48,453 bases of DNA from an uncultured Candidatus Saccharibacteria bacterium. Lineage in GTDB: Bacteria > Patescibacteriota > Minisyncoccia > UBA6257 > 2-01-FULL-56-20. Shown here one piece after another: positions 10,291-29,548 of the stretch (within the stretch, counting starts at the first letter, position 1; each line of letters starts with the position of its first letter). The stretch covers positions 18,601 through 67,053 of the forward strand of contig CAZYEL010000005.1 in the NCBI GenBank assembly GCA_964646415.1. The letters are read 5' to 3'. The position numbers were made by a program, and so were the translations under genes. The notes beneath the pieces are model-generated. The model made no database searches. It saw only the letters and a program-made list of their open reading frames with translations, and was not told where the DNA came from.

Positions 10291-11985
10291 ATGAATTCCG
10301 AAACAAGAAAATGTAAAAGTTGCAGCTCAGAATTTGTTATCGAACCAGATGACTTCGCGTTCTACGAAGCCGTCCACGTCCCGCCGCCGACGTGGTGCCC
10401 GCAATGCCGACTTGTGCGGCGACTTTCGTGGCAGGGGTACCGGATGCTTTATAAACGGAAGTGTGACTTTACGGGGGAAATGATGCTCACTACGCATCAC
10501 CCTGATGCCCCACACAAAATGTATCGGCAGGATGTGTGGTGGTCGGATAAATGGGACCCCAAGAGCTACGGACGCGATTATGATTTTTCGAAGTCGTTCT
10601 TTGAACAATTCCGGGAGCTTTTCAAAGTAGTGCCGCTCCCGAACTTATATACGGTATATTCAGCGATGACGAACAGCGACTACTGCAATGCTGCCTCCGG
10701 TCTCAAAAATTGCTACTTGTGTTTTCGCATCACTAGTGGTGAAGACAGCGCTTATTTGAACAAGGTCGTGGACGCAAAAAACTCACTCGATTCTTCTTTT
10801 ATAAATCAAGTGGAACTTTGTTATGGCTCGGTTCGCCTCAATAAATGTTATGGGGTTTTCTTCTCGCAGGATTGTGACAATTGCCACAACGTCTGGTTCT
10901 CGAAGGACCTCACGGGATGCTCGGATTGCATCGGATGTATCAATCTCCGAAGCAAGCAGTACTGCATTTTCAATGAACAACATACGAAAGAAGAGTATGA
11001 AAAGTTTCGAGGCGAGCTTGATATTGGTTCGCCGGAGCATCTTGCGGAGTTCAGAGCGAAGGCGGAAGTGTTCTTTGCAAAGCATCCGCGGAGGAATTTC
11101 CATGGGCTGAAAAACACCGATGTTTCCGGCGATTACATTTTTAATTCCAAAAATGTCAAAGACTCATATATGCTCGGGAATGGAGAAAATCTTCGATATT
11201 GTTATCTCTTGAAAAATGGGCCTGCGCGGAATTCCTACGATTGGTCTATTTTCGGTGATAATGGCGAATGGATTTACGATTCCGTATGGGTGGGGCTTAC
11301 CGCATCACACAATAAATTTTCTGCTTGGAACTACGGTTCCCGCGATATTGAGTACTGCTTTGGGTGTATGAATTCGGGAAATCTCTTCGGGTGCGTGGGT
11401 TTGCGAGGCGGAACGGAGTATTGCGTGTTGAACAAGCAACACACGAAGAGCGAGTATGCGGAGCTTGTGACGCGCATCAAAAAGCAGATGCTTGAGGTTC
11501 CATATCGCGACCGGCTCGGGCGCGAATATCGTTATGGAGAAATGTTGCCGGCGGAGATGAGCCCTTGGCTTTATAACGAGTCCACGGCCCATGAATGGTT
11601 CCCGAAAAAGAAAGAAGAGGCGCTCGCCGAGGGTTTCTTGTGGCGCGACCCGGATGTGCGGGAATACCGCGAGGCGACCGTGCAGCTTCCCGAACATATA
11701 AAGGACATTCCCGACAGTATTACGAAGGAAATCCTGAAATGCGGCGCATGCGGAAAAAACTACCAGATTATTCCGATGGAGCTCCAGTTTCTCCGCCGTT
11801 TCGGCTTGCCTGTGCCGCGCGAGTGCCCGCTTTGCCGTGACCGGGCGCGGATACAACAGCTTAATCCGATGGATATCTATAACCGTACTTGCGCAAAGTG
11901 TGGCAAGGCTATCCAAACTTCGTATGCCCCTAACCGACTCGAAATTATATACTGTGAACAATGCTATCAGAAAGAAGTTATATAA
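10291..11985 (+). CDS. Cys-rich multi-zinc-ribbon protein, paralog 2
   Basis: Same motif order as paralog 1; ends in a compact CxxC...CxxC ribbon (CAKCGKAIQTSYAPNRLEIIYCEQC). Confidence 0.9.
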   Translation: MNSETRKCKSCSSEFVIEPDDFAFYEAVHVPPPTWCPQCRLVRRLSWQGYRMLYKRKCDFTGEMMLTTHHPDAPHKMYRQDVWWSDKWDPKSYGRDYDFSKSFFEQFRELFKVVPLPNLYTVYSAMTNSDYCNAASGLKNCYLCFRITSGEDSAYLNKVVDAKNSLDSSFINQVELCYGSVRLNKCYGVFFSQDCDNCHNVWFSKDLTGCSDCIGCINLRSKQYCIFNEQHTKEEYEKFRGELDIGSPEHLAEFRAKAEVFFAKHPRRNFHGLKNTDVSGDYIFNSKNVKDSYMLGNGENLRYCYLLKNGPARNSYDWSIFGDNGEWIYDSVWVGLTASHNKFSAWNYGSRDIEYCFGCMNSGNLFGCVGLRGGTEYCVLNKQHTKSEYAELVTRIKKQMLEVPYRDRLGREYRYGEMLPAEMSPWLYNESTAHEWFPKKKEEALAEGFLWRDPDVREYREATVQLPEHIKDIPDSITKEILKCGACGKNYQIIPMELQFLRRFGLPVPRECPLCRDRARIQQLNPMDIYNRTCAKCGKAIQTSYAPNRLEIIYCEQCYQKEVI

Positions 11986-11991
11986 CGACCG

Positions 11992-13746
11992 ATGTTGATT
12001 GAAACAAGAAGTTGCCAGAATTGTAAAAACCAGTTTGTCATCGAGCCGGAAGATTTTGATTTTTACAAAAAGATGTGTGTGCCGCCGCCGACATTCTGTC
12101 CCGACTGCCGGGCTCAACGGCGGATGCTGTGGCGCAACGAACGTACCTACTACAAGAGGCCTTGTAACGCACCCGGGCACAGTGAGGGCGTCATCAGTAT
12201 CATTGCACCCGAATCGCCCTTCGTCATTTTCGATCAACAATATTGGTGGAGTGATAGTTGGGATCCGCTTGATGCTGGTCGCGACCTCGATTTTTCAAAA
12301 CCGTTTTTTAAACAGTATCGCGAGCTTTTGGAACGAGTGCCAATCATAGCGCTTTCGAACACAAACTCGGTGAATAGCGATTACTGCAGTTCTGCAGCAT
12401 GGAACAAAGATTGCTATCTAATTAGCGGCGGAGGGTGGGATGAGCGAGTATCTTATGCAAATCGCGCCGTCAAGGTGAAGGATTCGCTTGATGTCTACAT
12501 CGTCGATAACAGCGAACTTTGTTACGACTGCTCATACTGCACAAAGTGTTACCGACTTCTCATGAGCCGTAACTGTGAGGCATGCAGCGAATCCGCTTTC
12601 CTTTACAATTGCCGAAATTGTTCAAGCTGTTTTGGCTGTGCGAATTTGCGAAGTAAGCAGTATTGCTTCTTCAATGAACAACTGACGAAAGAAGAGTACG
12701 AAAGGCGCGTACGCAGTGCCGACATTGGTAGTTTCCGTGCTTTGCAGGGCGTTGCACGACGGTTTCACAATTGCGTGTATTTGAAAGCTATCCACAAGTA
12801 CGCGGATATTATGAATTGTACCAACGCGACTGGCGACCATATTCGTAACGCGCGGAACTGTCGCGACTGTTTTGATATTGGCGGTGACGACACTGAACAC
12901 TGCCGTTTTGTGAACTGGAGCGGTTTCAAGACGAAGGACCTCTACGATACTGGCCCGGGTGCCGGATGGAACTCCGAAATGCTTTACGAGGGGCTTGACC
13001 TAAACGACTCATCCCGGCTTGTTGGTTGTGTGACGAACTATAACTGTCAGGATATGTGGTACTGCGTTAATTGCCACAATTCGAGCGACTGCTTTGGTTG
13101 TTACGGGCTTCGCAGTAAACAGCACTGTATTCTGAATAAGCAGTATTCGGAGGAGGAGTATAAGGCGCTACTCTCGAGTGCCAAAGAGCATATGGAAAAG
13201 ATGCCTTACATTGATGCACAAGGGAGGAGGTATGGTCTCGGCGAGTTTTTCCCACCGGAGATACAGCCATTCGCGTACAACGAAACAATAGCGCAAGAGT
13301 ACTTTCCACTGACAAAAGAAGTGGCAACAAGGCAGGGGCATCGGTGGCGCGAGCAAGACGCCCGTCACTATACGGTTACGCTGCATGCAAGAGACGTTCC
13401 AGACCATATCAAAGACGTTTCCGATGATATTCTAAGAGAAATCATAGAGTGTGAACATGCCGGGGCATGTTTGGAACAATGCACGACAGCGTTCAAAATC
13501 ATCCCTGGAGAATTGCAGCTCTATCGGCGACTAGGCATTCCATTACCCCATCTTTGTCCAAACTGTCGGCACTACCAACGCCTTGCACAGCGCAACTCTT
13601 TGAAACTTTGGCACCGTCAATGCATGTGTAATAAAAGCCATCGAGAACACTCCGGGCAGTGCCTAAACGAGTTTGAGACGAGTTATGCACCGGAGCGTCC
13701 GGAAATCGTTTATTGCGAGCAGTGTTACCAACAGGAAATTTCATAA
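11992..13746 (+). CDS. Cys-rich multi-zinc-ribbon protein, paralog 3
   Basis: Same architecture; 6-bp gap from paralog 2. Confidence 0.9.
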   Translation: MLIETRSCQNCKNQFVIEPEDFDFYKKMCVPPPTFCPDCRAQRRMLWRNERTYYKRPCNAPGHSEGVISIIAPESPFVIFDQQYWWSDSWDPLDAGRDLDFSKPFFKQYRELLERVPIIALSNTNSVNSDYCSSAAWNKDCYLISGGGWDERVSYANRAVKVKDSLDVYIVDNSELCYDCSYCTKCYRLLMSRNCEACSESAFLYNCRNCSSCFGCANLRSKQYCFFNEQLTKEEYERRVRSADIGSFRALQGVARRFHNCVYLKAIHKYADIMNCTNATGDHIRNARNCRDCFDIGGDDTEHCRFVNWSGFKTKDLYDTGPGAGWNSEMLYEGLDLNDSSRLVGCVTNYNCQDMWYCVNCHNSSDCFGCYGLRSKQHCILNKQYSEEEYKALLSSAKEHMEKMPYIDAQGRRYGLGEFFPPEIQPFAYNETIAQEYFPLTKEVATRQGHRWREQDARHYTVTLHARDVPDHIKDVSDDILREIIECEHAGACLEQCTTAFKIIPGELQLYRRLGIPLPHLCPNCRHYQRLAQRNSLKLWHRQCMCNKSHREHSGQCLNEFETSYAPERPEIVYCEQCYQQEIS

Positions 13747-13772
13747 CCGATGCCAATATACCAATGGATACT

Positions 13773-13792
13773 CCTGCCTACCGGCAGGCAGG
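13773..13792. repeat. 20-bp REP-like imperfect palindrome CCTGCCTACCGGCAGGCAGG
   Basis: Its exact reverse complement occurs at 33331-33350. Confidence 0.9.
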
Positions 13793-13836
13793 AATTATGC
13801 GAATAAGGAAAACATTAGTATTATTAGCATGAATTC

Positions 13837-23471: not shown

Positions 23472-23505
23472 TTAGAAAATAGCAAGTAGAAATATAGAAA
23501 ATAGA

Positions 23506-25248
23506 ATGAAACCAGAAGTAAGAAAATGCAAAGAATGCGCCGCTCAATTCCCGATTGAAGCGGACGATATTGAGCTTTACGAGAAGTTCAAGGTGCCCGC
23601 GCCGGTGCGGTGCCCGGACTGCCGTCAGCGCCGGAGGTATTCTTGGCGGAACGAGCGTGTGCTCTACCGCCGGAATTGCGACCTCTGCAGGAAAAGCACG
23701 GTAACGATTTATTCGCCGAACAAGCCCTTCAAGGTGTATTGCCCGCCTTGTTTTTGGTCGGATAAATGGACTGGGCTTGATTACGGGCGCGAGTTTGATT
23801 TCAATAAGCCCTTCTTCCCGCAATGGCGGGAGCTGCAGCTTGAAGTACCGCGCATTGCGCTTCTCACCAAGAACAGCGTGAATTCGGAGTATACGAACCA
23901 CTCAAGCAATAACCGGAATTGCTATTTGAGTTTCAGTACATTCGAGTCCGAAAACATTATGCATTCGGCGAATGTGTGGAAGCAATCAAGGGATTGCGTT
24001 GATTGTTACCTCGCAAGCGTGGAGGGTGGCGCGGAATTGTGCTATGAGTGCGTGAATTCCGCGCGGATGTTTAACTGCCAATTCGGCGTGTTGCTTAAGG
24101 ATTGCACGGATTGCTTTTATTCTTACGACCTTCGCAGCTGTTCAAACTGCTGTCTTTCGTGGAATCTCCGGAACAAGCAGTATCACATCTTGAATGTCGG
24201 GCACTCGAAGGAGGAGTATGAGAAGAGATTTGCCGAATTGAATCTTGGGTCTTTTGTGGGGCGCGAGGCTTTGTATGCTCAATTTAAAGAGCTGCTGGAG
24301 AAGCGGGCCCTCCACAAATTCGCGGTGATTGAAAAATGCGTGAACGTGTCGGGGAATATGCTTTTCAACTCGAAAAATACGCGCCATTCGTTCGACGTGG
24401 ATAAAACGGAAGACACCAAATACGGGATTATCACGCCCGATGTGAAGAATTCTATGGATTCATATCATTATGGATTTGCCTGCGAGCTGATTTACGAGTC
24501 GCACGCGCTGATCCACGACTACGATGTGAAGTTTACGCACTTAAGTTACGACAACTCCCATTTGGAATACTGCGATTCGTGCCATAACTCCGAGAATCTT
24601 TTCGGTTGCGTGGGCATAAAGCAAGGGAAGTATGCAATTTTCAACAAACGGTACGAGGAGAGTGAATACGCGGCGCTCAAGAACCGCATTATCGCGCACA
24701 TGAAAGAGACGGGGGAATACGGTGAATTTTTTCCGCCGGAGCTGTCGCCCTTCGGATACAACGAAACCCAGGGGCAGGTATATATGCCCCTCAAAAAGGA
24801 AGAAGCGGCGGCGAAGGGTTATAAATGGGAAGACCTTACGCCGGGCACGTTCGGCAAGGAAACATTGAAACCCGGAAGCATCCCCGACGACATCAAGGAT
24901 ATCCCTGATACTATTTTGAAAGAAGCGCTTGCATGCGTCTCGTGCACGCGAAATTATAACGTGGTACAAGCCGAACTCGATTTCTACCGGCGCGTGCAGG
25001 TCCCCATTCCCAGGGCTTGCCCCGAATGCCGCTATCGCCGGCGGCTTGAGCGGCGTTTGCCGCGGAAGCTTTGGCATAGGCGTTGCAACTGCAACGCGGC
25101 AAATAGCAAAGAGCAAATAGCCCATAGAAACACGGCTCCGCATTTCCACGGCGATGCACCGTGCCCCAATGAATTTGAGACGCCGTATGCGCCGGAGCGG
25201 AAGGAGGTCGTGTACTGCGAGCAGTGTTATCAGGCGGAAGTGGCATAG
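23506..25248 (+). CDS. Cys-rich multi-zinc-ribbon protein, paralog 5
   Basis: Same architecture; preceded by a TAG-initiated heptamer array (23473-23508). Confidence 0.9.
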   Translation: MKPEVRKCKECAAQFPIEADDIELYEKFKVPAPVRCPDCRQRRRYSWRNERVLYRRNCDLCRKSTVTIYSPNKPFKVYCPPCFWSDKWTGLDYGREFDFNKPFFPQWRELQLEVPRIALLTKNSVNSEYTNHSSNNRNCYLSFSTFESENIMHSANVWKQSRDCVDCYLASVEGGAELCYECVNSARMFNCQFGVLLKDCTDCFYSYDLRSCSNCCLSWNLRNKQYHILNVGHSKEEYEKRFAELNLGSFVGREALYAQFKELLEKRALHKFAVIEKCVNVSGNMLFNSKNTRHSFDVDKTEDTKYGIITPDVKNSMDSYHYGFACELIYESHALIHDYDVKFTHLSYDNSHLEYCDSCHNSENLFGCVGIKQGKYAIFNKRYEESEYAALKNRIIAHMKETGEYGEFFPPELSPFGYNETQGQVYMPLKKEEAAAKGYKWEDLTPGTFGKETLKPGSIPDDIKDIPDTILKEALACVSCTRNYNVVQAELDFYRRVQVPIPRACPECRYRRRLERRLPRKLWHRRCNCNAANSKEQIAHRNTAPHFHGDAPCPNEFETPYAPERKEVVYCEQCYQAEVA

Positions 25249-25271
25249 ACACGACTGATGATTCATAGCCA

Positions 25272-27029
25272 ATGACGGAAGTGAGAACGTGCCAAAACTG
25301 CAAACAGGAATTTACGATAGCTCCCGAGGACTTTGATTTTTATAAAAAAGTAAAGGTTCCGCCCCCGACGTTTTGTTGGAAGTGTAGATTTCAGAGGAGA
25401 TTGACCTATAGGAACGAGCGGAATCCGTTTTGGGCGACGAGCGGTAAATCCGGGAAGCGGATACTCTCGATTTTTCCTCCCGAGGCGGGCGTTACGGTCT
25501 ATGATGAAAAGGAGTGGCGGTCGGATGATTGGGACGGGATGGACTACGGCAGGGATTATGATTTCTCGAGGCCGTTTTTCGAGCAAATACATGAATTAGC
25601 AAAAACGGTGCCGCGTTTCGGGCCGCACACGGAGGACAACGTGAATTGCGAGTACCTCGTCAATACCGGCTGGAGCAAAAACTGTTATCTCGTGTGCAAC
25701 ACTTCGTATGCGGAGGATTGCGCGTATGGTAACGCCATGGACTATTGCAAGTCCTCGTTCGATTGTTCGCATGTGACGAAATGCGAACGGTGTTATGGAT
25801 GTTTTTGGACCAGAGAGTCATATCAAACTCATTTTTCCACGCGCTCGATAAGCAATGCCTCAAGTTGGTGTCTCTTTGGTTGCAAAGGCATGACTGACTG
25901 TTTCGGGTGCGTGAATATGATGAACAAGAGCCACTATATCTTTAACCAGCCTTACTCCAGGGAAGAATACGAAGCGAAGATCGGGGCAATGAAGCTTAAT
26001 ACCTGGTCGGGACTCCAAAAAGCAAAGGCGGAGGCGTTTGCCTTCGCGGCAAAGTTTCCCGTGGCATATCTGAACGGAGTTCTGAATGACAACGTGACCG
26101 GGGAATATGTCAGTGAATCAAAGAATGTGCAGTATGGGTATCTGGTGAACGGCGGGAGAGATTTAAAATACGTGCAATACCTCCAAATTCCTGGCGCGGA
26201 GGATTCGCAGGACCTCACCATTTGGGGAGAAAAACACATATTGGGATATGAAAACGCGACCTCCGGCCTTGGAGTCTCAAATTGCCAGTTTTTGGAAGGA
26301 TGCTGGGCGGAGGTTTTTGATTCTCAATATTGTATTGCATGCCGCAACATTTCAAACTGTTTCGGGTGCGTGGGGTTGAAGAAAAAACAATGCTGTATTT
26401 TCAATAAGCAATATTCGAAAGGCGAGTATGAGAAGCTGAAAGCAAAAATAATCGCGCACATGAACGCGATGCCGTTCGTGGATAAAGCGGGAAGAGTATA
26501 TAAATATGGAGAATTTTTCCCTGCGGAGCATGCCCTTTGCGGGTACAACATCTCTCTGGCGAATGAACACTTTCCCTTGACCAAAGAGGAGGCATTGGCA
26601 CAGGGGTATCTGTGGACAGATATGAAATACGGGGATCACAAAGTGACGGTCATGCCGGACAAAATCCCCGATGCCATTGAAGATGTGCCCGACACGTTCA
26701 CGAAGGAAATTTTGGAATGCATGCAATGCAAAAAGGCATTCCGGGTAGTTCCCATGGAACTCGAATTCCTCAAAGCCGTAAAAATTCCGGTTCCGCGCAC
26801 GTGTGGCGACTGCCGACACAGTGAAAGGATTTCCCGGCGAGCGAAGGCGTTTCTCTACCATCAAACATGTGAATGTGCGGGGGCAAAATCCTCAAACGGG
26901 GTCTACGCGAATTTCACGAAGCATATTCATGGTGATGTGCCTTGTCCGGAAGAGTTTGAAACAAGCCATGATAAAAGTCGCCCTGAAATTGTTTATTGCC
27001 TCAAGTGTTTTTGGGCGGAAGTGGGGTAA
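25272..27029 (+). CDS. Cys-rich multi-zinc-ribbon protein, paralog 6 (most divergent)
   Basis: Same architecture, but the second CxxC/CxxC site is replaced (SGKS...YDEKE). Confidence 0.9.
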   Translation: MTEVRTCQNCKQEFTIAPEDFDFYKKVKVPPPTFCWKCRFQRRLTYRNERNPFWATSGKSGKRILSIFPPEAGVTVYDEKEWRSDDWDGMDYGRDYDFSRPFFEQIHELAKTVPRFGPHTEDNVNCEYLVNTGWSKNCYLVCNTSYAEDCAYGNAMDYCKSSFDCSHVTKCERCYGCFWTRESYQTHFSTRSISNASSWCLFGCKGMTDCFGCVNMMNKSHYIFNQPYSREEYEAKIGAMKLNTWSGLQKAKAEAFAFAAKFPVAYLNGVLNDNVTGEYVSESKNVQYGYLVNGGRDLKYVQYLQIPGAEDSQDLTIWGEKHILGYENATSGLGVSNCQFLEGCWAEVFDSQYCIACRNISNCFGCVGLKKKQCCIFNKQYSKGEYEKLKAKIIAHMNAMPFVDKAGRVYKYGEFFPAEHALCGYNISLANEHFPLTKEEALAQGYLWTDMKYGDHKVTVMPDKIPDAIEDVPDTFTKEILECMQCKKAFRVVPMELEFLKAVKIPVPRTCGDCRHSERISRRAKAFLYHQTCECAGAKSSNGVYANFTKHIHGDVPCPEEFETSHDKSRPEIVYCLKCFWAEVG

Positions 27030-27040
27030 AATAAGAAAGT

Positions 27041-28810
27041 ATGAACTTGGAAACTCGAACTTGCCAAAACTGCAAACAATCTTTCACAATCGAGCCAGAG
27101 GATTCCCAATTCTACGAGCGCGTGAACGTCCCGCCGCCGACATTTTGCCCTGATTGCCGACTCCAACGGCGGATGACGTTTCGGAACGAGCGCTCGCTCT
27201 ACAAGCGCACATGCGACCTTTGTAAAAAGCCGTTTGTCTCGATGTATTCACCTGACAAGCCCTTCACGGTGTATTGCAAAGAGTGCTGGTATTCCGATAA
27301 CTGGGACCCGCTTCAGTACGGGCAGGAATACGACTGGAAGAAACCTTTTTTCACGCAATTCCGGGAGTTGATGCATAAAGTGCCGCGCATTGGGATTATG
27401 CATATTCATACGAATATGAATGCCGACTTTGCAAATTATGTTGCAGACAGTAAAAACGTCTATCTCTCGCAATCGGTGATCGCGAAATCCGAAAACGTGT
27501 ATTATTCCCGAAATATTGATACGGGAAAAGATGTATTCGATTGCATGTATGTAAAAGAATCAGAGCGTTGTTATGAAGATTTGGATTGTTTGCACATGTA
27601 CCAAACGCAGTGGTGCGTTCGTTCGCGAGAGTGTCTTGGCTCCGCTTTTCTCTTTGATTGCGTAAGTTGTCAGGATTGTTTTATGAGCGCCAATCTTCGC
27701 AATAAGCGCTATGTGGTGCGCAATCAACAGCTTACGAAGGAAGAATATTCCGTGTTTATAGGGAAGTATAAAAAAGAGGGGTATGAAAGCAGTAAGAAAT
27801 ATCGCGGCGAGTTCCGGGAACTGATGCAACGTGCATTGCATAAATATGGAAATTTGCTCAAGTGCGTGGACTCAACTGGAGATAACCTGGACAATGTCAA
27901 AACAGTGAGAAATTCTTTCGATCTTTATGACGGAGAAAATCTTCGCTTTTGCCTTCGTAATGTAAAAAGCAAGGATTCGTATGATGTGGCTTTTGCAGTG
28001 AGTACTGAGTTGGCGTACGAAGGTATGGCGGCGGGATTTGGAAACTCCAGAGCTTTTTCCGTGGCTCATTGTGATGCGAACGAGAGAGTCTCATATTGTG
28101 ATTGGTGTCAGAGCTCCGCCGACCTTTTTGGATGCGCGGGTCTTCGTAAGAAACAGCATTTTATTTTGAACAAGCAGTATTCGAAAGAGGAATATGAAAA
28201 ATTGAAGGCGCGGATAATTGAGCATATGAACACGCTGCCATATGTCGATAAGACGGGAGGGGTGTATGCGTACGGCGAATTTTTCCCAGCCGAGCTTTCT
28301 CCGTTTGCTTATAATGAAACGCTTGCCGGAGAGTATTTTCCTTTATCGAAAGGTGAAACAGTGGCGCGGGGATATGTATGGCGCGAGTTGGATCCTTCGC
28401 CGCACAAACCCACCATTGTTGCAGGGGAACTTCCGGATGCAATTGCCGATGTTTCAGACGAAATACTCAAGGAAATTATCGAATGTACGGTGTGCAAACG
28501 CGTGTATCGAATACTCGCGCCCGAACTTGCGTTCTTGCGCCGCGAGGGGATTGTTTTGCCGCGCGAGTGCCAGGAATGTCGGCATAAAGACCGATTCGAT
28601 TTGCGGAATCCCTTAAAGCTTTGGCATCGGCGTTGTTGTTGCAGTGGCTTGAAAGGTAAAAATGAAAATGAAAGTGAGAATGAGTATAAGAATACTGCGA
28701 TGCATTTCCACGGGGCGGAGAAGTGTCTAAGTGAGTTCGAGACGAGCTACGCGCCCGAGCGGCCGGAGATGGTGTATTGTGAAAGTTGCTACCAATCAGA
28801 AGTTGTGTGA
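27041..28810 (+). CDS. Cys-rich multi-zinc-ribbon protein, paralog 7
   Basis: Same architecture; NENESENE hexamer expansion near the C-terminus. Confidence 0.9.
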   Translation: MNLETRTCQNCKQSFTIEPEDSQFYERVNVPPPTFCPDCRLQRRMTFRNERSLYKRTCDLCKKPFVSMYSPDKPFTVYCKECWYSDNWDPLQYGQEYDWKKPFFTQFRELMHKVPRIGIMHIHTNMNADFANYVADSKNVYLSQSVIAKSENVYYSRNIDTGKDVFDCMYVKESERCYEDLDCLHMYQTQWCVRSRECLGSAFLFDCVSCQDCFMSANLRNKRYVVRNQQLTKEEYSVFIGKYKKEGYESSKKYRGEFRELMQRALHKYGNLLKCVDSTGDNLDNVKTVRNSFDLYDGENLRFCLRNVKSKDSYDVAFAVSTELAYEGMAAGFGNSRAFSVAHCDANERVSYCDWCQSSADLFGCAGLRKKQHFILNKQYSKEEYEKLKARIIEHMNTLPYVDKTGGVYAYGEFFPAELSPFAYNETLAGEYFPLSKGETVARGYVWRELDPSPHKPTIVAGELPDAIADVSDEILKEIIECTVCKRVYRILAPELAFLRREGIVLPRECQECRHKDRFDLRNPLKLWHRRCCCSGLKGKNENESENEYKNTAMHFHGAEKCLSEFETSYAPERPEMVYCESCYQSEVV

Positions 28811-28840
28811 GAGTAACTTTCATCCCGAGTATGCCCGAGG

Positions 28841-28873
28841 GGCGAGCAGTGTTATCAGGCGGAAGTGGCATGA
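28841..28873 (+). pseudogene. Orphaned 3' end of a paralog-5-type gene (GEQCYQAEVA*)
   Basis: 28842-28871 is identical to 25217-25246 (30 bp); ends in TGA; no in-frame start. Confidence 0.8.
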
Positions 28874-28876
28874 GCC

Positions 28877-28911
28877 GACCCATAACTAATGACCAATAAC
28901 CTATAACGCAT
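28877..28911 (+). repeat. Heptamer array ending in the rnhA start codon
   Basis: gacccat aactaat gaccaat aacctat aacgcAT(G). Confidence 0.7.
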
Positions 28912-29548
28912 GATGGCAAAAAAGATACAAAATCTTTTCGGCGATAAGAAAAAAAAATCGACAAAGTATTACGCATGGAGCATTCCCGGCGGCGGGGAGG
29001 GTGTCGCCGAGGAGTGGGGTGAGGCGGAGAAGCGAGTTTCCGGGAAGCAGGGTGCGCGATTCAAGGGGTTTAAGACGAGAGAGGAAGCCGAGAAATGGCT
29101 TGCGCTCGGCGCGGACTATGGCGTAAAGCATGTGCAAAAGATCGAGCCGGGAATTTACTTTGACGCAGGCACGGGGCGGGGCGAAGGGGTTGAAATCAGC
29201 GTAACCAACGAGAAGGGGAAGAACCTTTTACATAAGGCGATCTCGAAGGTGGAGCTTACGCGGGGGAAGCATTTGCTTGGGAAGGAGGTTACAAACAATT
29301 ACGGCGAGCTTCTTGCATGCAAATACGCTATCGAGATTGCTATGGCTGAAAATATTAAAAAAGTATTCGGGGATAGCAAGCTCGTGATTGAATTTTGGAC
29401 CAGGTGGAGAATAAAAAAAGATGTGCCGGAAGAGACGTTCAAGTTAGCGCGAGAGGCGGCGGGATTACGAAAAGAATTTGAGGAGCAAGGAGGCGAGGTG
29501 ATTCGCATATCAGGCGATGATAATCCCGCGGATTTAGGGTTTCATTAA
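28910..29548 (+). CDS. rnhA: Ribonuclease HI with N-terminal hybrid-binding (caulimovirus viroplasmin-like) domain
   Basis: KYYAW...W.E....V.G..GARFKGF.TREEA domain; catalytic D (YFDAG), E (TNNYGE), D (GDSKLV) and ADLG. Confidence 0.85.
   Translation: MMAKKIQNLFGDKKKKSTKYYAWSIPGGGEGVAEEWGEAEKRVSGKQGARFKGFKTREEAEKWLALGADYGVKHVQKIEPGIYFDAGTGRGEGVEISVTNEKGKNLLHKAISKVELTRGKHLLGKEVTNNYGELLACKYAIEIAMAENIKKVFGDSKLVIEFWTRWRIKKDVPEETFKLAREAAGLRKEFEEQGGEVIRISGDDNPADLGFH

Follow-up and report, generated by a model that had tools for sequence, protein, structure and literature searches.

A gene end repeated over exactly 30 nucleotides and a conserved post-stop module in a paralog array of a Candidatus Saccharibacteria genome

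In the genome of an uncultured Candidatus Saccharibacteria bacterium, the last 30 nucleotides of P5, a member of an array of zinc-ribbon paralogs, recur without a mismatch behind P7, the second paralog downstream, as part of a non-coding pseudo-tail that follows the P7 stop codon. The locus points to a homogenisation of gene ends over short tracts, and it shows that a small non-coding module containing a pseudo-tail travels with some genes of the family and is conserved far beyond neutral expectation. As to how the two 30-mers became identical, the preferred reading, to which we give about an even chance, is that gene conversion over a short tract involved the tail of P5 and the pseudo-tail linked to P7, in arrays that are shuffled by recombination. 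The scar of a homology-driven insertion ranks second as possible but rather unlikely, and each of the remaining explanations is considered very improbable.

The repeat, the post-stop module and shared gene ends

The window, i.e. the whole stretch of 48,453 nucleotides analysed here, corresponds to C5:18601-67053 of the source genome (G000; 1,026,712 bp in 41 contigs; GenBank GCA_964646415.1). On its plus strand, GCGAGCAGTGTTATCAGGCGGAAGTGGCAT is present at 25217-25246 and 28842-28871 with 0 mismatches between the copies, which are spaced by 3,625 bp and enclose P6 and P7; two matches were obtained in 0 of 100 shuffles, and no further site at three or fewer mismatches exists in the window. In the whole of G000 these two are the only exact copies, the next-closest paralog tail deviating from the 30-mer at 3 positions and the tails that encode the same peptide, CEQCYQAEVA, at 4-5 positions, all synonymous. 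The preliminary description of this DNA had reported an exact 30-bp direct repeat around approximately 3.6 kb with P6 and P7, which is borne out, and had taken the exact identity to point to a recent event, which the synonymous differences of the same-peptide tails support.

The second copy is located in the 99-nt gap between P7 and the rnhA-like open reading frame, 31 nt past the P7 stop codon. In the P7 frame it reads (G)EQCYQAEVA followed by a stop and is preceded by two stops, TGA and then TAA. Read-through or frameshifting of P7 into the pseudo-tail is ruled out by these two in-frame stops and by the subtype 2 modules, which are out of frame.

While the preliminary description regarded this orphan as the displaced distal end of P5, it is instead the pseudo-tail of a module composed of the real tail with its stop, a linker of 30-31 nt and a pseudo-tail with a stop of its own (consensus: real tail TGTGAAArTTGCTAC...stop; linker GAGyAAyTTTCAyCCyGAG..TGyC(C)GArGGG; pseudo-tail GCGAGCAGTGyTAyCA...stop). 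The unit was traced first by BLAST with 28800-28909 in 121 family genomes and then with a covariance model derived from nine of its copies; 34 module copies were recovered, distributed over 19 of 125 family genomes (13 of 48 genera). The module stands behind paralogs of different orthogroups, with two copies in G000, three in G003, which is a species of the same genus, seven in G001, and others in G128 and further genomes. Its carriers include the orthologs of C3_46683, C9_17447 and C9_4118 in G003 and those of C7_21202 and C9_5813 in G001; the G000 positions that match module sites of relatives are often without a module. Within G000, 2 of 31 paralogs (P7 and C3_10577) carry a clear module and C7_21202 a decayed one, the other junctions being unrelated short spacers.

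The age of the module can be read from another array of G000, where the junction between the intact paralogs C3_10577 and C3_12356 is homologous to the stretch after P7 with respect to the terminal ~60 nt of the coding sequence (2 mismatches in 40 nt), the stop, the linker (22/31), the pseudo-tail (18/30) and the following spacer of the P5-P6 type. A decayed module copy between two intact paralogs speaks against a displaced P5 end, and as the linker/pseudo-tail junction is found in diverged copies, the pseudo-tail is old and its 30/30 match to P5 young. The recent deletion of a P5 duplicate that left 30 nt behind is likewise ruled out, since diverged versions of the same junction are present in the C3 array and elsewhere in other genomes. 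On contig C1 of G001, three pseudo-tails are stacked, of which the distal one is the most decayed.

The module copy at C4:27536-27592 of G003 is identical to the window at 43 of 44 nt, whereas the codons of conserved residues in P4, P5 and rnhA are identical between G000 and G003 at 47-62% only and synonymous sites are near saturation, which indicates that the linker is either constrained at the nucleotide level or has recently spread. Within the pseudo-tail, the first 11-14 nt belong to the most conserved block of the module, and the 3' two-thirds show free variation from copy to copy. A consensus hairpin of linker and pseudo-tail start, with which all copies are compatible, comprises 15 pairs, with 91% of the cells paired versus approximately 50% in slid controls, and one compensatory pair (C-G to U-A) between the two linker subtypes; its covariation score was reached by 87 of 500 column shuffles and is not significant, shuffled sequences fold as well as the window copy does (z = 0.08) and an Rfam scan of 28500-29100 returned no family. 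The linker core (28822-28841, variant TCCCGAGTATGCCCGAGGG) is a variant of a dispersed motif of ~19 nt, CCCTGAGCTTGTCGAAGGG, of which at least 12 other copies are present in G000 (Table 1), several of them apparently within long open reading frames. The reverse complement of this motif is found in frame in the heads of some paralogs as TTCGACAAGCTCAG, coding for TSTSSVQA. Derivation of the linker from a decayed 'NEFETSYAPER' coding stretch by a 16-nt deletion was set aside as no more than a possibility, as the alignment is not significant (p=0.41) and the core is a variant of the dispersed motif.

In gene conversion, the pseudo-tail of the P7 3' module and the working end of P5 would be the two partners, 3.6 kb apart, and a recent short patch of non-reciprocal homologous recombination would have made both tails identical. 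The left limit of the tract lies where homology ends, its right limit at an indel in the stop codon region. The content of the array would have been reshuffled by recombination at conserved ends of genes, such that P6-P7 differs from the relatives. The repeat would then be a by-product of homogenisation and not an att-type scar; being a direct repeat of 30 bp, it might still allow P6-P7 to be lost or duplicated on rare occasions in a RecA-dependent manner.

Several observations are consistent with such a tract. The identity ends sharply, with no significant similarity between the upstream flanks, P5 coding sequence and linker (p=0.41), and with an indel at the stop downstream of the 30-mer, after which a weak similarity of ~65% continues. 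On contig C8 of G133 (L055), a member of another genus, adjacent intact paralogs of different orthogroups have an exact 36-nt end in common, TATTGCGAGCAGTGCTATCAGGCGGAAGTGGCATAA, at 11708-11737 and 13741-13770 (2,033 bp apart), while a third tail nearby differs at 2 sites. No orphan accompanies these two intact neighbours, which counts against the reading of the preliminary description. Among the paralogs of G000, exact aligned runs of at least 20 nt number 27 versus 10.9 under a codon-resampled null, those of at least 26 nt 4 versus 0.6, and one run of at least 30 nt (31 nt, in adjacent genes) was observed versus 0 in 30 resamplings, so that the excess of identical runs over the null is two- to six-fold. 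The P5 tail shares 31 nt with the tail of C37_1038 at 1 mismatch, and the pseudo-tails of the window and of L020 differ at 5 sites, all synonymous third positions, which fits repeated overwriting from coding tails.

From the module and its spread, the exact sharing of tails elsewhere and the differences in gene order described below, we infer that conversion produced the identity. On the one hand, the P5 tail differs from the tail of its G003 ortholog at ~10 of 33 sites; on the other hand, the pseudo-tail on C16 of G001 matches the window 30-mer at 29 of 30 positions and the subtype 1 pseudo-tails of G003 differ from it. Either direction of conversion fits.

A number of points weigh against conversion. 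An exact tract of 30 nt is extreme among the real genes of G000, with one comparable case, and efficient homologous pairing needs a minimum length close to 30 nt. With 43/44 identical positions between species, the linker is conserved too well for the module to be just a decaying remnant. Furthermore, the adjacency of P5 and rnhA in G003, together with the P7 relative elsewhere in G003 and G002, fits an insertion exactly at this point, which renders a link between repeat and insertion attractive.

Gene order in relatives and the alternative readings

Species of one genus differ in the order of their arrays. The G003 ortholog of P5 (82% amino acid identity) directly adjoins rnhA without P6 or P7, the locus reading Ddl, PMT2, DUF5674, orf91, C9_4118 ortholog, P4 ortholog (81%), P5 ortholog (82%), rnhA, MgtC, aaRS, ADK. 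An intact P5 beside rnhA, which the preliminary description had predicted, thus exists in this species, and in the outgroup contig L022 the P5 ortholog is followed by three small genes and then rnhA, so that the position of P5 near rnhA is probably ancestral. The P5 lineage itself is conserved, with 82% amino acid identity in G003 and 58-77% in other genera, and the upstream neighbour of rnhA is a different one in each of five species of the genus.

The two additional genes have separate histories. P7 has its reciprocal best match in G003 (67-70%) and its best match in G002 (61%) in a different array, where these relatives are preceded by the C9_5813 ortholog and followed by a small 'MNTVMRRIGY' gene; in G000, C9_5813 is directly followed by the small 'MNTVMRRIGY' gene with no paralog in between. 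For P6, no ortholog was found in the four other species of the genus (best match 47%), and the members of its orthogroup in other lineages (64-76%) have different neighbours. Neither the P5-P6 nor the P6-P7 adjacency was found conserved in other genomes, and among 5.8 billion proteins no closer donor was detected than best non-self matches of 76% for P6 and 67% for P7. Comparison of the C9 array of G000 with contigs C12 and C21 of G003 (L009, L024, L025) revealed that two paralog lineages are swapped: P7 is part of the P4-P5 array in G000 and of the C9-type array in G003 and G002, while C9_4118 is part of the C9 array in G000 but in G003 precedes P4 and is followed by a module. The P6-P7 block is therefore a real difference in gene content. 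Of the reading in the preliminary description, the recent event, the empty arrangement in a relative and the occurrence of further orphan tails are borne out; its central inference, the orphan as a P5 end that marks site-specific integration, is not supported. Differential loss of old duplicates is an alternative to a relocation of P7, because its 67% identity is close to the minimum seen for orthologs (66-86%).

A scar of homology-driven cassette gain would connect the repeat with this difference in gene content, and we regard it as a possible though less probable account. A segment or circle of spacer, P6, P7, linker and pseudo-tail would have recombined with the P5 tail in a RecA-type reaction, without a dedicated integrase, and thereby have placed P6-P7 between P5 and rnhA with one tail copy on either side, the tail copies being either identical beforehand or homogenised in the heteroduplex. 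The apparently ancestral neighbourhood of P5 and rnhA in G003 and L022 argues for it, as do the reciprocal best match of P7 in another array of G003 and G002 at a place where G000 has no paralog, the absence of P6 from the congeners and the location of C9_4118, which also differs between G000 and G003 and is module-bearing in the latter. The order at the C3 junction (P7-like tail, linker, pseudo-tail, spacer of the P5-P6 type, P6-like gene) is the one expected of a circle or tandem junction, and at the end of the C3 array, too, G000 possesses an additional paralog, which directly precedes an orphan tail shared with G003. On the other hand, crossing-over within diverged tails, by a circle or by ends-in repair, would give two different, reciprocal chimeras, so that exact identity is not itself predicted and would need an extra assumption. 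No second copy of P6-P7 and no donor was found, an empty-site or circle junction is present in no available contig, and the 67% identity of P7 to its G003 counterpart, as considered above, leaves differential loss as an alternative to relocation.

A site-specific cassette system, in which the module would be an attC- or attP-like site, the 30-mer the crossover core and the recombinase encoded elsewhere, is very unlikely. The module is indeed situated at gene 3' ends, conserved at the nucleotide level across species and placed where gene order differs, its sequence permits an imperfect hairpin in which one pair is compensatory between subtypes, and the three stacked pseudo-tails of G001, with the distal one most decayed, look like serial displacement. 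However, only 2-3 of the 31 G000 paralogs carry it, the covariation is not significant (87/500 shuffles), Rfam gave no match, and the pseudo-tail half of the module, which would form the core, varies between copies. A six-frame search of the whole genome yielded one PF00589 match, a tyrosine recombinase in a 318-aa frame on contig C13, and the genome also has two serine recombinases, on C12 and C36; none is located on contig C5 or beside any array, which extends to the whole contig the statement of the preliminary description that the window is devoid of a recombinase. The GC (guanine plus cytosine) content of P6 and P7, 0.46-0.48, is inside the range of the other paralogs and the same as that of their neighbours, so that base composition provides no signal of foreign origin, and the repeat-bounded block consists of P6 and P7 only, without a mobility gene. 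The site-specific integration that the orphan was thought to mark consequently finds neither an array-linked integrase nor a foreign composition.

Two explanations that dispense with recombination are at least as improbable. Coincidence of consensus codons for the common peptide CEQCYQAEVA could be suspected in view of tails and pseudo-tails in other genera (G133, G128, G086, C16 of G001) that agree with the 30-mer at 27-29 of 30 positions; however, other G000 tails for this peptide differ at 4-5 of ~10 synonymous sites, and from those counts an exact match with a partner in the same array is, by a rough estimate, expected in well under 1%. Selection could have kept the identity if the 30-mer had a function in RNA or DNA at each of its two sites, such as binding of the same factor or provision of the 3' arm of a post-stop hairpin. 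In the predicted fold of the consensus, the linker pairs with the 11-14 nt at the start of the pseudo-tail (91% of cells paired versus ~50% in slid controls), which is compatible with such a role, but the 3' two-thirds of the pseudo-tail are free to vary, P5 has no linker to pair with and the window copy does not fold better than shuffles (z = 0.08), which makes it hardly credible.

That the second copy is an assembly artefact is the least probable of all and altogether unlikely: although complete P7 is found in two metagenome-assembled genomes only and the Logan contigs break within P7 and 20 nt before the orphan, the two assemblies are identical, the same module architecture is present in many independent genomes and, as the contig ends overlap by 55 nt, the final assembler k-mer exceeded the 30-nt repeat. 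The second of these assemblies, GCA_016190325.1, is a separate NCBI entry with 100% identity to the window across 21.7 kb. The P5-P6 junction is spanned by Logan contigs of five runs, and one Logan contig starts 20 nt upstream of the orphan and continues into rnhA; among the 8 contigs with the exact P5 protein, P6 follows P5 wherever the contig reaches that far. Look-ups of the exact P5, P7 and rnhA proteins retrieved the occupied arrangement only, always 100% identical to the window, with an empty-site or circle junction in none of the available contigs, and a scan of metagenome contigs of the Joint Genome Institute for the exact 30-mer gave 0 matches.

Comparison with known systems and potential role of the module

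Concerted evolution by short-tract gene conversion is known from tufA/tufB, rRNA operons and the opa and pil loci of Neisseria. As in these cases, a sharp patch of perfect identity connects diverged homologous sequences of one genome at conserved gene ends, no dedicated recombinase is needed and more cases are seen in the family, namely the G133 tails and the excess of long runs. Unlike in classical conversion, one partner is a non-coding pseudo-tail that belongs to a conserved post-stop module, the tract, with 30 nt, is very short, and the paralogs are far more diverged (~40% amino acid identity).

Orphan C-terminal modules of rhs/cdiA (for example Koskiniemi et al. 2014, PMC3967940) are also displaced 3' ends just downstream of an intact gene, with short homology supporting recombination and with possible stacking, as for the three pseudo-tails on C1 of G001. 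The remnants described here differ in that they comprise 10-27 codons of a conserved and not a variable end, and nothing is attached to them, neither payload nor immunity gene, so that no diversity is stored. With integron attC cassettes and clusters of attC sites lacking integrases (CALINs) the module has in common that a conserved, possibly structured element occupies the 3' end of array genes whose order differs between close relatives; an IntI-type integrase is lacking here, however, only a minority of the genes carries the element, the covariation of the hairpin is not significant and all 'cassettes' would come from one protein family.

Integrative elements that use the 3' ends of tRNA, tmRNA or protein genes equally leave a direct repeat of the gene end around a block and an intact target, and G003 would represent the relative with the unoccupied arrangement. 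Yet the block contains no integrase or mobility gene and consists of two members of the resident family with native composition, and the distal repeat copy is part of a module found at many other loci. Finally, similar to repetitive extragenic palindromic (REP) elements and Rickettsia palindromic elements, the linker core is a variant of a dispersed motif of ~19 nt with some copies apparently within long open reading frames; in contrast to them, the motif is situated between a real tail and a tail remnant and all three are conserved together across genera.

A cautionary conclusion is that extra genes enclosed by an exact direct repeat of a gene end should not on their own be taken as evidence of site-specific integration. 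The most interesting outcome is the conserved stop-linker-pseudo-tail module and its association with genes whose location differs between G000 and G003. It is conceivable, but in our estimation doubtful, that the module is a portable, integrase-independent exchange site, the second tail-like homology of which, placed directly past a gene, allows whole paralogs to move or to be copied between arrays by ends-in recombination with the tail of any other member of the family. Such a site would explain why both genes that differ in location between G000 and G003 carry the module, why pseudo-tails stack and why the linker is conserved at the nucleotide level in 13 genera, and it would represent a gene-shuffling device dedicated to one protein family in bacteria of the candidate phyla radiation. 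If the module promotes exchange, it would constitute a novel type of recombination aid; if it acts as a terminator or an RNA element, it is a new conserved 3' element of operons in these bacteria. The locus bears on how reduced genomes keep and reshuffle 31 old paralogs.

Features of the locus and further observations

The features around the repeat are collected in Table 1. The spacer type that separates P5 and P6 ('...ATAACCA ATGACGGAG') is also found before C3_12356, before C7_21202 and in the remnant past the orphan, the similarity between the P5-P6 spacer and the spacer after the orphan being supported by p ~0.0085 in shuffles. In the rnhA-like protein, Pfam (E<=0.01) recognizes the N-terminal, hybrid-binding domain of RNase H1 only and reports no RNase H catalytic domain in the C-terminal ~140 residues.

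Table 1. Positions of genes, repeat copies and spacers in the window, and of motif copies elsewhere in G000.
Feature	Position	Strand	Description
P5	23506..25248	+	580 aa, zinc-ribbon paralog family; open reading frame and translation
Repeat copy 1	25217..25246	+	last 30 nt of P5, codes for (C)EQCYQAEVA; the following AG completes the TAG stop
P5-P6 spacer	25249..25271	+	ACACGACTGATGATTCATAGCCA
P6	25272..27029	+	585-aa paralog
P7	27041..28810	+	589-aa paralog
Linker of the 3' module	28811..28841	+	GAGTAACTTTCATCCCGAGTATGCCCGAGGG; strongly conserved across species
Pseudo-tail (orphan)	28842..28873	+	repeat copy 2 (28842-28871) plus GA, giving TGA
Spacer remnant	28874..28909	+	GCCGACCCATAACTAATGACCAATAACCTATAACGC; P5-P6 spacer type; ends at the start codon of the rnhA-like gene
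rnhA-like gene	28910..29548	+	212 aa; fixed right-hand neighbour of the variable array end
CCCTGAGCTTGTCGAAGGG motif copies	G000 C25:4681-4700, C18:16219-16238, C1:70892-70911, C3:74354-74372, C13:12196-12216, C14:19094-19113, others		

The family comprises 31 full-length paralogs of ~580 aa and two fragments in G000, in arrays on nine contigs; the family takes up ~5% of the 1-Mb genome. The names of homologous proteins assign G000 to Candidatus Liptonbacteria, within the candidate phyla radiation. All pairs are old (38-60% amino acid identity), Pfam provides only a sub-threshold treble-clef match and a limited literature search on zinc-ribbon proteins of ~580 aa turned up nothing. At C22:12520-13458, a 312-aa C-terminal half-paralog is 94% identical over 536 nt of DNA to the paralog at C26:4073-5935 and represents either a strain variant or a recent partial duplication; at C37:847-1089, an 80-aa N-terminal fragment is located just upstream of the C37 paralog.

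Orphan tails in other arrays, which the preliminary description proposed to look for, exist in the C3 array of G000, in its G003 counterpart and in L020. At C3:18515-18556 of G000, a second orphan tail, GVYCEACYNAEIA followed by a stop, of the non-module type, is situated 105 nt past the last paralog of the C3 array (region C3:18411-18556); it is separated from this paralog by a 46-nt palindromic repeat that also occurs on C23, C21, C26 and C8. The corresponding array end of G003 (L030 6019-6105) has a 38-codon orphan with the same peptide. Just upstream of the C3 orphan, G000 has an extra full paralog, C3_16590, which has no ortholog in G003. L020 contributes a 10-codon remnant, DEQCYQAEVA with a stop, as an orphan tail of the non-module type.

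Other junction elements recur as well. The A-rich spacer AGAAAATAGAAAGTAGAAATATAGAAAATAGA of the P4-P5 junction (window 23474-23510) is near-identical, over 37 nt with 1 mismatch, in two other arrays (G000 C9:5817-5853 and C8 ~28726-28760), and it looks as if junction modules of tail, spacer and head were homogenised within the genome independently of the gene bodies. Paired palindromes, AAGGTTnAACCTT ... AAGGTTnAACCTT, are located directly upstream of P1, P2 and P4 (8412-8458, 10245-10291 and 21622-21668), and a further pair separates C9_17447 from C9_19308. They are candidates for an operator or a terminator by which the first genes of sub-operons would be marked. At C16:95461-95561 of G001 (L049), a pseudo-tail is split by a 20-nt GC palindrome, CCTGCCTGCCGGTAGGCAGG, and a similar palindrome, CCTGCCTACCGGCAGGCAGG, follows P3 at ~13770-13800 of the window.

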